Assembly (NCBI GenBank): GCA_014905635.1
Contig: JABVCE010000031.1
Location: forward strand, 62,001-126,000
DNA length: 64,000 nucleotides
Direction of reading: 5' to 3'
From: Scenedesmus sp. PABB004
Taxonomy: Eukaryota
In this document: piece by piece, positions 27,264-33,200 of the stretch
Layout: the number at the start of each line of letters is the position of its first letter
Position numbering within the stretch: position 1 is the stretch's first letter
Notes under the pieces: generated by a model
Database searches by the model: none
What the model was told of the DNA's origin: nothing
What the model saw: the letters and a program-made list of their open reading frames with translations, nothing else
Position numbers and translations under genes: made by a program

Positions 27264-30200
27264 ATGGACCCGCCGGCTGGGGAAGAGGCGCGGGGCGGGC
27301 TGATCACGCGCGGGGAGGAGGGGCAGAAGCATGTGTTCAAGGCCCCCGCGCCCAAGGCCTCCCTGCTCGGTGAGCCCACCTCCACGCCGCCTCCCGCGCA
27401 TGCACGGGCGCGGGCGCAGCCCTGGAAGGCGCTGCGGCGCCCGCGGCGGCCCCGGCGCGCCAGCGCGGCGCCGCCCGCGCCGACCGCTGCTGCTGCTGCC
27501 GCCGCCGCCGCAGGCCTGGACGTGCTGGCGCGCCAGAAGCGCGCCGAGCGCGGCGAGCCGGAAGGTGGGCGACGGCGGCGGCCGTCGCGCGGGGCGGGCG
27601 GCCCGGGCCGCGGCAGGCGCAGCTGCCGCCGCTGCTGCTGGCGAGGCAGCCCTCGCCGCACGCGCGCGGCACGCGCCGAGCGCACGCCCGCGCGCTGCCG
27701 CCGCGCCCGCAGTGCTGGCCAAGCGCCCCAAGCTCGCGTTTGAGGCGGACGAGGCGGACGACAGCGCGGCGACCGCGCTCGGCGGCGGCGGCGGCGGCGG
27801 CGGCGGCGAGCCGGGCGCGACCGCCGCCGGCGGCAGCGGCGCGATGGGCCCGCCGCAGGCGCGCCGCTTCCGGGGGCAGCGCGTCGAGACGCCGTCCCAC
27901 CCGGGCGGCGTGAGCAGCGAAGCGCGCGGCTCGCTCGAGGCGGCGCGCGCGCGGCAGCGGGAGCGCGAGCGGAGCGGGCTCTACGCGAGCACCAGCGGCG
28001 GCAGCGACCGCGACCGCGACCGCGACGGCCGCAGCGGCGGCAGCGACCGCGACCGGGAGCGCGACCGGGGCCGCAGCGGCAGCGGCAGCGACCGCGACCG
28101 CCGCGGCGACGACAGCCGGCGCAGCAGCGGCGGCTGGGAGCGCGACCGCGACCGCGGCGGCGGCGGCGGCGGCGGCGGCGGCGGCGGCTGGGAGCGCGAC
28201 CGCGACCGCGGCGGCGGCAGCGACCGGCGCGGCTATGACGAGCGGCGCGGCAGCGAGCAGCGCGAGCGCGACGGACCCCGCGGCGGCAGCAGCCTGCGCA
28301 GCAGCGCCTGGGAGGCGGCGACGCCGCTGCGCGAGCCGTCCAGCTGGGACGAGCCCACGCCCGCGCGGCCCGGCGGCGGCGCGCCCGGCGACACGCCGCT
28401 GCGCGACGCGCGCGCGCTCGCGGCGCCGTCGCCCTGGGAGGCCGCGCCCGGCAGCGGCAGCACCCGCGGCGGCGCCGGCGGCGCCGGTGCCGGCGCCGGC
28501 TGGGGCGGCGCGACGCCGGGCGCGATGCCCGCTGCGGCGCGGCCGGGCAGCAGCGTGCGCGCCGGCCCGGGCGGCTCCACCGGCGCGAGCGGCATCGGGC
28601 GCGTTCGCTTCGAGGAGCCCAGCCCCGCACTCACGCCGAGCTGGAAGTCCACCAGCTGGGCGCGCGCGGGCGCCAAGGCGGCCGGCGCCGGGGGCGGCGA
28701 GGACAGCCCCGAGCTCGGCGACGACCGCGGCGGCCCGGGCGACGGCTTCGACGAGGCGCTCAGGTGCGGCCCCGCGCTGCGGCGCGGGCTGGCGCGCGGC
28801 GCGGCGCGGCGGCGGCAGCGCGCGCCCGCCGCGCTCCACCACCCCCCCCCCTGGCCCTCACCTCAGCACTAAGCGCGCCGCCCCGCCGCCCTGCCCTGCC
28901 TCCCTCGCCGCGCCCGCGTGCGTGCAGGCGTGAGGCGGAGCTGGATGAGATTCAGCGCGAGCGCGACTGGTACGACGCGGAGGAGTTTGGCGGCGCGGGC
29001 ACGGCCGGCGGCGACGCGGCCAATCCCTTTGTCGGCGACGAGGGGCTGTTCGCCAAGCGGGAGCAGGAGATGCAGCAGCGCATGAAGCGGCGCGACGGAA
29101 CGTGCGCGCGGCGGCAGTGTGCCGCGCCGCGCCGTGGTCGGGGCCGCCGGCGCGCCCCGCGCGCGCCGCGCGCGGCCGCGCCGCGCCCAACCCCACCCGC
29201 GCGCCGCCGCGCGCCCGCGCCGCGTGCAGCACGATGGGCCTCGCGGCGAGCAAACGCGCGGGCGAGCTTGAGAAGGCGCTGAACGCGTGGGAGGACAACC
29301 GCCTGCTCACGAGCGGCGTGGTCAAGCTGCGCCAGGCGCGCGGCGCGCGCGGGGCCTGCGGCGGCGGCGGCGGCGGCGGGGGCGTGGGTGGGCATGGCTG
29401 TGTCGCCGCGCCCCCCGCCGCCGCGCCGCGCGCGCCGCCGCGCGTCCGTCACGCCCCGTCCCCCGCTCACTCACTCGCTCGCTCACTCACTCACTCGCTC
29501 ACTGGCTCACTCACTCACTCGCTCACTCGCTGGCTCGCTCACCCACTCCACTCACCGCGCAGGTGAACCTCGACTTTGACGACGCCGAGGACGACCGCGT
29601 GCTGCTGCTCGTGCACGACACCAAGCCGCCGTTCCTCAAGGGCGCCGTGCTCGGCGCGCGCGGCGGCGGCGGCGTGGTGCTGCCGCTGCGCGACCCCACG
29701 AGCGACATGGCCGTCATCGCCCGGTGCGGGGGGCGTTACGGGGAGCGTTGCGGGGGCGTTACGAGGGCGTTACATGGGGTGTTACGAGGGCGTTGAAGGG
29801 TTGGGGAGGGGGGCTGAGGGCGGTTGTGTGTGGACCGTGCGGGGCGGCGGGGCTGCGCCCGCTGCGGCTGCTGGTGCGGGGGGCTGCCGGCGGGGGGGTC
29901 GCGCGGTGTGAGCGTGCACCAGCCGCTTATGGACCGCTTCGCCGCCTCCGCAAAGCGTTCCATAAGCGGCTGGTGCGCGGTCGCCGCGCGGCGCGCCGGC
30001 GGCCGCGCCGCGTGGCGGCGCTCCGGGCGGAGCAGCAGGGGCGCCCTGGCGGCTGCGCGGGCCGCCGCGCGGGGGCGGTGCCGCGGCGCGCCGCGCTCCC
30101 ACCGCGGCGCGGCGCCCCGGCGGCGGCGGCGGCGCGCGCCCTGGGCTGCTGGCGGACACCACGTGTTGCCGGCGCAGCAACCCAGGGCGCGCGCCGCCGC

Positions 30201-33200
30201 CGCCGGGGCGCTCCCTCACCTCCCCTCCCTCACCTCTCTCACCTCCCCACCCGCCCGCGCTCACTCACCCGCCCGCCGCCCGCCGCCCGCACCCGCCCGC
30301 CCGCGCCGCCGCCGCCGCCGCCGCCGCCGCATGCGCAGCAACGGCAGCGCGCTGGTGCGCGAGGTGCGTGAGAAGAAGGACAAGGACAAGAGCCGGCTGC
30401 GCTTCTGGGACATGGCGGGCAGCAAGATGGGCAACATCACGGGCCTCACCGCGGAGGAGGAGGGCGAGGCCAAGCGCCGCGCCGACGAGGCGGTGCGTGT
30501 GGTGTGCGTGTGTGTGTGTTTGGGGTGTGTGTGTGTGGGGGGGGGGGGGGGGCTGTGGGGGGGCGCGCGGGGGGCTGCTGTGTTTTGGGGAGTTTGGGCG
30601 GCGTCTTGCGGGGGGAGGGCCGGGGCGGCGCCTGCGGCGGCGGCGGCGGCGCAGGGCACGGCGGCGCGGCGGTCGCGCGCGCGCCGCGCGTGACGCGCGC
30701 GCCGCGCGCCGCGCGCGCCGCGCAGGCGGCGGCTGGGCTCGGCGACGACGGCGACGACGACGACCCGGGGGGCCGCAAGGCCAACCAGTTCAAGAGCCAC
30801 CTCAAGAAGAGCGAGGCTGCGAGCGAGTTCAGCCGCACCAAGACCATGGCCCAGCAGCGCCGCAGCTTGCCCGTGTATGGCGTGCGGGAGGAGCTGCTGC
30901 AGGTGAGGGGGTGGGCGTGTGTGGGTGTGGGTGGGAGGCGGGGGGCGCGGGGGCGCGCGGACCGCCCTGCAGGCTGCGGGGCCGGCGGGGCGCGCGCGCG
31001 GGGCGCCGCGGGGCGCCGCCGCGCGCCTCGCCCGCACACCCCCTAAAACCGCCGCCGCTGCCCCGCTCCCACACCCTAAACCCCGCCAGGTTATCCGGGA
31101 GAACCCCGTGACGATCGTGGTCGGTGAGACGGGCAGCGGCAAGACCACGCAGGCGCGGGCCGCGGCGCCTGGGGCGGCGCGGCGCGGGCCTGGGGCGGCG
31201 CGCCGCGCGGCGCGGCGGCTTGCTCGCAGCGACTCACGCCCTGGTCGGAAATTCGCAAAACCGCCGCCTCGAGCCCGCCCCTAAACCGCCGCCCCCCGAT
31301 CCCCGCCCTAAACCCCGCAGATGACCCAGTTCCTGCACGAGGACGGCTACACCTCGCTGGGCATCATCGGCTGCACCCAGGTGGGCGCGCGTGGGGGCGT
31401 GCGTGGGCGTGCGTGGGGGCGTGTGGGCGTGTGTGGGCGTGTGGGCGTGATATTGTGTGTGTGGGCGTGTGTTTATTGATGATGGGGGTGTTGGTGCGTG
31501 TTTGCGGGGCGGAAGGGAGAGGGATAGGGTGGAAGGGGGGGGGGGGGGGGCGTGCTCCCAGGCGGCGCCGGCGCCGCGGCGCGCCCCCGCTCGGCTGGCG
31601 CGTGTGCTGCCCGCAACGCTCTGGACCGCGTTGCGCGCTGCGCACGCGCCAGCCGGGCGGGGGCATGCCGCGCGGCGGGGGGCGTGCACCTAGGCAGCGA
31701 CAGCGCGGCGCACCCCCGCCCGGCTGGGAGCGTGACCGGCTGCGCAAGCGCCTGCGCACGCGCCAGCCGGGCGGGGGCGCGCCGCGCGGCGCGCCGCGGG
31801 GCGCGCTCCCAGGCGGCGGCGGGGGCCTGCGCCGCGCTGGCGGCGGCAGCTGCCTCCCCGCCGGTGAGCCTCGGGGCTGGCGCAGGTGTTGTGCGTGCCC
31901 CGCACCACCTGCCGCCAGCCCCGAGGCGCACCGGCGGCGTCGAGCCGCTGCGCCCGGCGCGCCGTGCGGCCCGCGCGTGCCTCGCTCCCCCTCCCCTGCC
32001 CTCCCTCCCCACAGCCTCCCGCCCCTCCCTCTCTGCCCCTCACACCTCTCCCACACCCACTTACACGTGCGACGCCCCGCCCCGCGCCGCCCGCCCGCCC
32101 GCCCGCCCCACCCAAACCGTGAACCCTTAACCCTAAACCCCCGCAGCCGCGCCGCGTGGCCGCGATGAGCGTGGCCAAGCGCGTGAGCGAGGAGATGGGC
32201 GTCGAGCTCGGCCAGGAGGTGCGGCGCGGCGCGCCGCGGGGCGGGTTCGGGCTGAGAGGCGGCAGGGCTTTGGGCGGCAGGGCTGAGGCGGCGGGCGCGA
32301 CGCGCCCCGGGGCTGCGCCCTGCTCGGGCCGGGCGGCGCGCCGGCGCGCCGCTCACGCCGCCGCGCCCGCTCCTCTCGCGCCCCGCCCTCCAAACCCTGG
32401 ACCCCAGGTCGGCTACTCCATTCGCTTTGAGGACTGCACCAGCGACAAGACCTTCATCAAGTACATGACAGGTGCGGTGTGTGTGGGGGGGGGCAGGGGG
32501 GGGCGACAGGGGAAGGCAGGGGGTGTGCCAGGGTGTGTGTGGGGGGGACGGGGGGGGGGGGGGGGGGTCTCAAGGCGGTGCGTGTGACCGCGCCCCAGCC
32601 GCTGGTGGACGCTGTGCGCAGGCGTGCCGCCGCGCAGCATCCCACCAGCGGCTGGTGCGCGGTCACCGCGCGGCGCGCCGCGCGGCGCGGCGCGGCGGCG
32701 CTCCGGGCGGAGCAGCAGGGGCGCCCTGGCGGCTGCGCGGGCCGCGCGGGGGCAGTGCCGCGGCGCGCCGCGCTCCCGCCGCGGCGCGGCGCCCCGCGGC
32801 GGCGGCGGCGCGCGCCCTGGGTTGCTGTGCTCGCCCCGTGTCGCCGGCGCACTCATCCCAGGGCGCGCGCCGCCGCCGCCGCCGCCGCCGCGCTCCCTCA
32901 CCTCCCTCCCCCTCCCCCTCCCTCCCCTCTCTCCCTCCCTCCCCTCTCTCCCTCCCTCTCACACACGCCTCCCTCCCTCTCACACACGCCTCCCTCCCCC
33001 TCCCCGCAAAACCCTAAACCCTGGCCCCTCAGACGGCGTGCTGCTGCGTGAGACGCTGAGCAGCGACGACCTGTTCCAGTACAAGGCGGTCATCATGGAC
33101 GAGGCCCACGAGCGCAGCCTCAACACGGACGTGCTCTTCGGCATCCTCAAAAAGGCGCGTGTGCGCGCGTGTGTGCGTGTGTGTGCGGGGTGGTTTGGGG

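Follow-up and report, generated by a model that had tools for sequence, protein, structure and literature searches.

A palindrome-rich module shared by two introns of a PRP16-like gene in Scenedesmus sp. PABB004

Two introns of one gene of Scenedesmus sp. PABB004 contain nearly the same palindrome-rich segment, and the question raised by this locus is whether that segment is a conserved RNA, a mobile element, or a piece of DNA copied between introns. The window analyzed is a stretch of 64 kb (assembly GCA_014905635.1, contig JABVCE010000031.1, positions 62,001–126,000 of the forward strand), and all coordinates given here are positions within it. Its GC content is 73–84%, and simple repeats are abundant throughout. 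The host gene (27264–38830, + strand), whose start codon and 3' end were assigned by eye, has at least 25 introns and is a PRP16/DHX38-like DEAH-box splicing helicase: the best PDB match for its exon translations was PRP16 (3.6e-22 and 6.3e-5), and the motifs GETGSGKT and DEAH were found in its product. When 24 introns were taken out, a 3819-nt frame without a stop was obtained, in agreement with the numbers, 6 and 12, that the original prediction had assigned to the two introns.

That prediction had described a two-hairpin module duplicated between these introns, and the duplication is real. By pairwise alignment, copy 1 occupies 29893–30224 (+ strand, ~332 nt) of intron 6 (29724–30338, + strand; 615 nt, GT-AG, phase 2), and copy 2 occupies 32562–32906 (+ strand, ~345 nt) of intron 12 (32472–33032, + strand; 561 nt, GT-AG, phase 1), the two being separated by 2669 nt on one strand of one gene. 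Positions 29965–30205 and 32647–32881 align in 242 columns with 90.5% identity (E 4.9e-81), and in a MAFFT alignment the similarity extends from about 29893/32562, where a G-run is followed by TC, to a CT-rich tail at 30224/32906. The linker said to be shared by the copies is indeed identical over 47 nt (30014–30060 and 32694–32740, both on the + strand), and two matches to it were found in 0 of 100 dinucleotide shuffles. Outside both apices, substitutions affect ~6% of the aligned positions (15 substitution columns), a level at which an identical run of 47 nt is, by a rough estimate, expected and hence not unusual alone. The copies also differ by indels of 7, 6, 3, 2, and 1 nt, which rule out a coding sequence.

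The similarity between introns 6 and 12 is restricted to the module, and their arms are unrelated. The 5' arm of intron 6 is an 11-nt G-rich tandem array and its 3' arm is C-rich; in intron 12, G-runs with GT repeats form the 5' arm and CTCC-type repeats the 3' arm, and the tandem arrays differ. Compared with each other, the 5' arms scored 11.0 and the 3' arms 19.0, against scores with other introns of up to 15.5 and 20.0 for the 5' arms and up to 29.0 and 23.0 for the 3' arms. A duplication of the whole intron was rejected, since these arms are no more similar than those of unrelated introns. The module makes up 332 of the 615 nt of intron 6 and 345 of the 561 nt of intron 12, lies at the point where the intron turns from G-rich to C-rich, and provides the splice sites in use in neither of them. 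In the predicted whole-intron folds, the first 60 nt contain 41 and 44 positions that are paired to the last third of the intron, and the predicted end-to-end graph distances (6 and 13 for introns 6 and 12, respectively) are not shorter than the shuffle means of 9. In intron 13, the GT-type and AC-type ends are nearly complementary.

Each copy is predicted to fold into two robust hairpins and a GC-rich middle. Hairpin 1 is at 29908–29985 in copy 1 (+ strand; stem 29919–29932/29960–29973, with UA and AU pairs) and at 32582–32667 in copy 2 (+ strand; stem 32595–32608/32642–32655, with two GC pairs at the altered positions). Hairpin 3, which contains the second stem of the original prediction, is at 30112–30212 (+ strand; stem 30132–30145/30181–30194, flanked by GGC/GCC repeats) and at 32788–32892 (+ strand; stem 32808–32821/32857–32870), and this stem was retained in both copies, as had been claimed. 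The loops have diverged, also as claimed, with differences in 32 of the 79 apex columns against 34 of the 259 columns elsewhere (Fisher p 4.6e-7), and the apices are self-complementary in each copy despite this divergence. The RNA folds are well below shuffles in energy (z −9.3 for copy 1 and −7.2 for copy 2). However, the RNA strand is not specifically indicated, because the sense and antisense energies are much the same (−267.4/−266.2 kcal/mol for copy 1 and −274.8/−270.2 kcal/mol for copy 2) and the DNA of the hairpins folds as well as the RNA (z −9.1, −8.8, −8.8, and −6.6, with equally good shuffles in 0 of 200).

From the base changes between the copies, the original prediction had argued for a conserved structure by covariation; the hairpins and the compensated pairs are real, but a covariation argument cannot rest on two sequences. 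The compensated dinucleotide of stem 1 consists of UA to GC and AU to GC changes in adjacent pairs (columns 43/85 and 44/84). Among the 120 consensus pairs of the two sequences, 111 are invariant, seven vary on one side, in each case through G-U, and two vary on both sides, and with two sequences this amount of covariation was attained in 132 of 500 shuffles. No pair is broken in the consensus, which conceals broken pairs by construction: in stem 1, there is one mismatch per copy where the other copy pairs (columns 27 and 33). When the MFE of each copy replaces the consensus, just one of the 15 non-apex substitution columns has the same partner in both, which leaves hairpins 1 and 3 as the only ones robustly common to them. 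The conversion between arms that had been mentioned as a caveat explains the changes at least as well. With its altered bases, the 3' arm of copy 2 contains a perfect 7+7 mini-palindrome (32643–32657); in the corresponding motif of copy 1 (29961–29975), there are two mismatches.

The explanation that we favor, and to which we give about an even chance, is that a palindrome-rich segment was copied at the DNA level between two introns and was tolerated because it folds on itself. Noncoding DNA of ~330 nt would have been copied into another intron of the same gene, 2.7 kb away, either by break repair from a template or by ectopic conversion, with the low-complexity G- and C-rich intron arms as anchors, or by a small fold-back element hopping over a short distance. 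In the pre-mRNA, the insert would then fold into a compact and self-contained structure that leaves the splice-site regions untouched, and whose hairpin 1 buries a 5' splice-site look-alike unsurpassed in score within the gene's introns. The compensated dinucleotide and the hypervariable, self-complementary apices would reflect palindrome dynamics (template-switch or quasi-palindrome correction), and selection to keep the insert closed would be weak at most. Consistent with copying of DNA are the presence of just two copies in 64 kb, sharing strand and gene, the strand symmetry, the concentration of the differences in the apices, and the limits of the homology, as well as the recurrence of hairpin duplication in the host gene, where intron 10 carries a tandem hairpin unit and the long introns are rich in palindromes. 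Because both borders fade into low-complexity sequence, neither the direction from donor to recipient nor a repair scar or microhomology junction was demonstrable. On the other side, the compensated pairs and the seven one-sided changes through G-U would also suit selection on RNA, as would an excess of G-U over A-C mismatches described below; all 11 sequence-complex palindromes are in this one gene and none of 29 other noncoding pieces reaches a z of −7, a gene specificity that would not be expected of a purely mutational process; and the end-to-end distances in the predicted folds, which bear on the putative shielding, are not below those of shuffles. All considered, the module looks more like a self-folding intron filler than a proven functional RNA.

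Somewhat unlikely, but to be taken seriously, is that the module belongs to a family of small non-autonomous mobile elements spread through the genome (introner-like, MITE, or fold-back), which land in introns or create them, in which case two independent or local insertions would have occurred. The size, the intronic site, and the sense orientation of both copies fit such a family, their ~10% divergence hints at past activity, and the module ends are weakly inverted, with seven pairs between columns 1–7 and 346–352, although the exact borders are uncertain. Introners are reported from many algae, and the families described often have no clear target-site duplications (TSDs) or TIRs (PMC9860276). 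However, BLAST and covariance model searches found no third copy in the 64-kb window, which has at least 26 other noncoding stretches of at least 300 nt; the covariance model, a check proposed with the original prediction, and BLAST did not detect even a fragment. Scans of public collections gave chance-level matches only. Direct repeats were not found around the copies, the left flanks being G-rich and the right ones C-rich, with ends that are uncertain where they merge into low-complexity sequence. Moreover, the module fills only part of each intron and brings no used splice site.

Selection on the RNA itself is an unlikely explanation. The hairpins would be precursors of Dicer-type small RNAs or cis-acting splicing structures, which may mask cryptic splice sites or serve as helicase-sensitive checkpoints, and the compensated pairs would be due to purifying selection. 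The high stability of the folds, the retention of stems while loops diverged, and the compensated and wobble-mediated changes in a consensus without a broken pair are compatible with this. So is a 5' splice-site look-alike in the 3' arm of hairpin 1 (ctg followed by GTGCGCGG), which is at 29970–29980 in copy 1 (+ strand, first intron-like base 29973) and, with the same motif, buried in hairpin 1 of copy 2 at 32652–32662 (+ strand, first intron-like base 32655). With a PWM score of 8.0, it is tied for the top among the 35 internal sites scoring at least 5.0 in 7340 intron nt and outscores four of the 24 real 5' splice sites, and 10 of its 11 positions are paired in the predicted MFE. Across the intron palindromes of the host gene, G-U mismatches exceed A-C mismatches (26 vs 13), which slightly favors the RNA strand. 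Nevertheless, selection for an RNA structure is weakly supported, because there are only two sequences, most pairs are invariant, the compensated pairs are adjacent, the strands are symmetrical, and six of the nine long introns of the gene contain comparable palindromes. All Rfam matches of the module were under the gathering scores. A C/D snoRNA was rejected, as TGATGA and CTGA are absent from both copies, and so was an H/ACA snoRNA, as ACA occurs once in copy 1 and not at all in copy 2, with no Rfam match. The distance between the 5' splice site and the start of hairpin 1 is 184 nt in copy 1 and 110 nt in copy 2; being away from the splice sites, this hairpin is not a mirtron. In the sister hairpin pair of intron 10, moreover, the 5' arm was allowed to decay.

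The palindromes are concentrated in the long introns of the host gene. Among its introns longer than 350 nt, six of nine have a z of −7 or below, the values for the 15 shorter ones lie between +2.1 and −3.8, and a z of −7 was attained by none of the 29 other noncoding pieces of the window. Thirteen of the 21 palindromes of at least 50 nt in the window are inside this gene, and all 11 of the sequence-complex ones (GC below 0.9) are in its introns, a clustering that also fits selection on the RNA. It is nonetheless quite improbable that the PRP16 gene bears a selected set of intronic hairpins that affect the expression of the gene itself, such as helicase-sensitive splicing checkpoints, cryptic 5' splice-site masks, or small-RNA precursors, with the duplicated module as a footprint of selection. 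If the hairpins are selected, the gene would be a truly interesting case of a splicing helicase regulated by feedback through the structure of its own introns.

Self-complementarity within each copy also makes the two direct copies complementary to one another (78% over 109 nt between 30106–30214 and 32788–32896), and they could in principle pair over a distance of 2.7 kb, with exons 7–12 looped out and exon skipping or a circular RNA as the result. These exons comprise 590 nt, and their skipping would shift the frame and could serve regulation, but the near-perfect local hairpins (within 100 nt) would form first during transcription and the predicted whole-intron folds contain local pairs only, which makes such pairing very improbable. 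That the duplication arose artificially, through misassembly or by chance in DNA so GC-rich and low in complexity, as the composition and repeats of the window might suggest, is hardly credible, given that the shared sequence is complex, with a linker that shuffles did not reproduce, that the copies differ by ~10% and by indels, and that the exons on either side are distinct and maintain a conserved reading frame that is open.

The locus offers a small, clean example of long-intron construction in an extremely GC-rich genome, and it suggests a view in which short introns with G-rich 5' and C-rich 3' arms gain self-folding palindromic inserts that can be copied between introns. It also calls for caution: compensatory changes between two paralogous palindromes do not prove that an RNA is functional, since an identical pattern arises from templated mutation. 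Should the module belong to a genome-wide family, a GC-rich, internally palindromic type would be added to the known intron-associated mobile elements.

Several known systems resemble the module in part. Like the introners described in PMC9860276, it is a short noncoding repeat carried in sense by more than one intron of a GC-rich, alga-like genome, and TSDs and TIRs, shown there by 49/130 and 72/177 families (Gozashti et al. 2022), are not obligatory. Unlike them, it occupies the central part of two introns that are otherwise unrelated, provides neither with a splice site in use, and has both of its copies in one gene, the rest of the 64 kb containing none. With the sister (stw)introns of Hypoxylaceae, as reported in PMC8469720, it shares similar intronic segments, strong internal symmetry, possible double-stranded intron RNA, and the absence of flanking duplications. 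Those, however, are whole introns at new positions with 45–55-nt terminal inverted repeats, while in the module the symmetry is that of internal hairpins, and introns 6 and 12 do not share their ends. The near-perfect intronic hairpins of 80–100 nt recall intronic miRNA precursors and mirtrons (Rfam families; PMC3431481), but their ends are 90–190 nt from the splice sites and the Rfam threshold is not reached. As in the structure-dependent teleost introns with (GT)n and (AC)n ends of PMC4691745, G/GT-rich 5' and C/CA/CT-rich 3' parts are predicted to pair; unlike in these introns, the module is not the bridging repeat, and the end-to-end distances are no better than those of shuffles at 80% GC. 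Finally, template switching is described as capable of producing multi-base compensatory hairpin changes in one event (PMC8794818). For the module, such an event and its direction are inferred; as in the hairpins reported in PMC8794818 and PMC5453318 to be created and maintained by template-switch mutation, adjacent bases are altered on both arms together, the stem is left perfect, and the new bases agree with a reverse-complement template close by.

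The window has a G+C content of 73–84% throughout and is eukaryotic. The module, a hairpin-rich segment of about 330 nt, lies on its + strand twice (copy 1, 29893–30224; copy 2, 32562–32906), within the gene of a PRP16/DHX38-like DEAH-box splicing helicase that has very short exons and many introns (27264 to about 38830, + strand). The exon translations at 35154–35315 and 30334–30489 both had PRP16/DHX38 as their top match among solved structures (3.6e-22 and 6.3e-5, respectively). Twenty-four introns were set by eye and then checked by script, and their removal leaves a 3819-nt frame with no stop codons, in which the GETGSGKT and DEAH motifs are present. 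This model places copy 1 in intron 6 (29724–30338, + strand, 615 nt, phase 2) and copy 2 in intron 12 (32472–33032, + strand, 561 nt, phase 1), and the intron numbering of the original prediction is therefore correct.

The presence of a duplicated module in these two introns, as predicted, was confirmed and is far beyond chance. When each copy was compared with the window by BLAST, 29965–30205 aligned with 32647–32881 at 90.5% identity over 242 columns (E-values 2.8e-83 and 4.9e-81), the remaining matches within the window being short GCC-type low-complexity sequences only, and MAFFT stretches the similarity from 29893/32562 (a G-run, then TC) to 30224/32906 (a CT-rich tail). When the whole window was compared with itself under low-complexity masking, the module was the sole dispersed repeat of at least 70 nt. 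Hairpin 1 holds stem 1 (29919–29932/29960–29973 in copy 1, 32595–32608/32642–32655 in copy 2), hairpin 3 holds stem 2 (30132–30145/30181–30194 and 32808–32821/32857–32870), and the linker of 47 nt between them is identical in the two copies, with two matches reproduced by no shuffle. Because substitutions outside the hairpin apices affect only about 6% of the aligned positions, an identical linker is, by this rough estimate, not in itself a sign of special constraint. A coding sequence is excluded by copy-to-copy indels of 7, 6, 3, 2, and 1 nt.

The two introns differ in their arms: on the 5′ side, intron 6 carries an 11-nt G-rich tandem array and intron 12 carries G-runs and GT repeats, and the 3′ arms are distinct C-rich arrays. 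In local alignments, the 5′ arms scored 11.0 against each other, versus up to 15.5 and 20.0 with other introns, and the 3′ arms scored 19.0, versus up to 29.0 and 23.0. Since these arms are no more alike than those of other introns, duplication of the whole intron is ruled out, and since the flanks of the module are unshared, the splice sites in use were not supplied by it. No direct repeats were seen flanking either copy, the end pairing is of 7 bp only, and the borders fade into low complexity. The reading that we favor, and hold to be about evenly poised between right and wrong, is that DNA-level copying carried a palindrome-rich segment from one intron of the gene to another.

Two other explanations compete chiefly with this reading. 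In the first, which we regard as unlikely, the two intronic copies belong to a genome-wide introner-like or fold-back family. A search for further members by covariance model had been proposed with the original prediction, and in the window it yielded only the two copies and generic palindromes. The model of hairpin 1 scored 105 and 96.6 bits on the copies and 68.2 and 59.7 bits on their antisense strands; the next matches, at 32.4 bits or less, were other palindromes of the host gene, which match on both strands via pairing only and are therefore generic hairpins rather than family members. In metagenomes, a 22-nt word from the linker gave one match, at 65–72% GC and without similarity beyond the word, and a search of GTDB genomes with the hairpin-1 stem pattern gave three bacterial MAG matches, restricted to pattern arms of 16–18 nt; both results were attributed to chance, and a 28-nt linker word had no match in viral contigs. 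Against Rfam, positions 29000–34000 produced four sub-threshold miRNA-like matches, none of which reached the gathering score or was specific to the module. No tRNA or tmRNA was found by ARAGORN, and snoRNA boxes are absent from the module.

As RNA, copy 1 has a predicted fold of −267.4 kcal/mol (z −9.3) and copy 2 one of −274.8 kcal/mol (z −7.2), values equaled by none of 100 dinucleotide shuffles in either case. The RNAalifold consensus of the two copies comprises 120 pairs, of which 111 are invariant, seven are changed in one partner, all via G-U, and two in both partners (UA to GC and AU to GC, in adjacent columns 43/85 and 44/84). The latter are the two neighboring compensated base pairs predicted for stem 1. 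Their interpretation as covariation reflecting a conserved structure holds in part: the compensated pairs are real, but the observed covariation values were matched by 132 of 500 shuffles, and with two sequences this control is without power. A consensus fold conceals broken pairs by construction. In stem 1, each copy has a single mismatch at a position that is paired in the other (columns 27 and 33), and when each copy was folded alone, the partner was the same in both for one of the 15 non-apex substitution columns. Hairpins 1 and 3 are robustly common to both copies; the GC-rich middle fold is not.

The predicted divergence of the loops is evident in the differences between copies, which gather at the apices of the two hairpins (32 of the 79 columns there, versus 34 of the other 259; Fisher p 4.6e-7), and every apex remains self-complementary within each copy. 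At the apex of hairpin 1, the reverse-complement alignment scored 10, versus 7 for the forward one and a shuffle maximum of 9, but this apex is itself palindromic and its runs are consequently common to both orientations; a loop inversion was not adopted. At the apex of hairpin 3, the forward alignment (12) scored above the reverse complement (8).

In the second, which we judge quite improbable, the hairpins were selected as RNA. A mild excess of G-U over A-C mismatches, in the direction expected of RNA, was found both in 34 palindromic self-alignments from the introns of the host gene (26 versus 13) and within the module (8 versus 5). A signature of the RNA strand was absent in three tests: sense and antisense folds were −267.4 and −266.2 kcal/mol for copy 1 and −274.8 and −270.2 kcal/mol for copy 2; the four hairpins had z-scores of −9.1, −8.8, −8.8, and −6.6 under DNA parameters; and strand preference gave no signal across the 24 introns, sense being more stable in 11 and antisense in 13. 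The compensated dinucleotide also has a possible origin in DNA. In copy 2, the 3′ arm of stem 1 (32643–32657) is a perfect mini-palindrome of 7 + 7 nt around one base, and its counterpart in copy 1 (29961–29975) is a mini-palindrome with exactly two mismatched bases, TA, mirrored on the 5′ arm. As the changed bases make the local mini-palindrome perfect, quasi-palindrome correction or a template switch would yield them, creating exactly the compensated dinucleotide. Template switching is described as creating and maintaining perfect RNA hairpins, with compensatory changes of several bases (PMC8794818). Selection for the main stem possibly fits the dinucleotide as well.

The window contains 21 palindromes of at least 50 nt, 13 of them in the host gene, which occupies 18% of its length. 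All 11 with a GC fraction below 0.9 are in the introns of this gene, and the eight outside it (27264–38830) each have a GC content of 91% or more. Of the nine introns exceeding 350 nt, six (introns 6, 10, 12, 13, 15, and 18) have fold z-scores of −7.0 to −15.1; the 15 shorter introns range from +2.1 to −3.8, and 29 further non-coding-like pieces in the window range from +2.2 to −6.4, none reaching −7. The long introns of the host gene thus look like short introns with self-folding palindromic inserts, and within the gene, the intron 6/12 pair is the sole case of an insert copied between introns. Duplication of hairpin units recurs in intron 10, where a hairpin-bearing unit of 114–132 nt is present in tandem repeat (31542–31830); its 3′ arm is well preserved (89% over 47 nt), its 5′ arm has decayed, and its apex has diverged. 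In intron 15, a 26-nt segment occurs twice, 232 nt apart (34133–34158 and 34365–34390), flanking two large palindromes (34096–34158 and 34208–34295), which again points to local duplication of DNA that forms hairpins.

In the predicted folds of whole introns 6 and 12, the module is at the apex of a long stem joining the intron ends, in which 41 and 44, respectively, of the 5′-most 60 nt are paired to the last third. At 80% GC, shuffles bring the ends equally close, so that a function in splice-site bridging is not claimed. Look-alike donors, that is, 5′ splice-site-like sequences inside an intron, were sought in 7340 nt of intron with a position weight matrix built on the real donors, all 24 of which score 6.5–13.1. 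The top internal sites were ctg/GTGCGCGG at 29973 and 32655, whose score of 8.0 equals that of a site in intron 18 and exceeds those of four of the 24 real donors. Both fall within the 3′ arm of hairpin 1, and the predicted fold pairs 10 of the 11 positions of each. Stop codons are met when reading from the true donors through to these sites, so their use would be harmful, and their predicted burial in the stem could matter.

Six of the 24 introns (25%) begin with GC instead of GT, namely introns 5, 9, 13, 14, 16, and 17 (donors at 29336, 31153, 33155, 33698, 34691, and 35316; donor GCGCG(C/G/T)), a share of GC-AG introns far above that of most eukaryotes. The introns between 27370 and 38359 have one architecture in common: G-skew marks the first third of 21 of the 24, and C-skew the last third of 23. 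These thirds are often formed by G/GT-rich and C/CT/CA-rich tandem arrays able to pair mutually. The 5′ end of the GC-AG intron 13 (33155–33517; fold z −10.8), a GC/GT-repeat followed by a G-run from 33155, is approximately the reverse complement of its own 3′ end, a C-run followed by a CA-repeat to 33517, and resembles the (GT)n/(AC)n structured introns of teleosts. In intron 16, also GC-AG, a (CT)n microsatellite about 170 nt long and the C-run that follows it (34875–35045) occupy much of the 3′ half. Intron 23 contains two further copies (37778–37809 and 37843–37872), at ~65-nt spacing, of the segment made up of the final ~24 nt of exon 23 and its GTGAGG donor (37714–37745), which creates look-alike donors at 37800 (score 7.9) and 37866 (score 6.5). 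A telomere-repeat-like CCCTAAACCC motif, probably the branch-point region, is found 10–20 nt upstream of the acceptor in four of the 24 introns (introns 8, 9, 10, and 12, at about 31070–31089, 31300–31320, 32125–32146, and 33009–33032, respectively).

Unless selection turns out to lie behind the concentration of hairpins in this one gene, the finding is of moderate to low interest. The closest described counterparts of the module are introners (PMC9860276), the symmetrical sister introns of Hypoxylaceae (PMC8469720), template-switch-maintained hairpins (PMC8794818), and structure-dependent GT/AC-repeat introns (PMC4691745), and the module corresponds in full to the definition of none of them. 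The share of GC-AG introns in the host gene and its intron repeats of 10–11 nt are reminiscent of haptophytes, 56% GC-AG junctions being reported for Emiliania huxleyi (PMC4028052); the published genome of Diacronema lutheri has 73.25% GC and 45% single-exon genes (PMC8379373).
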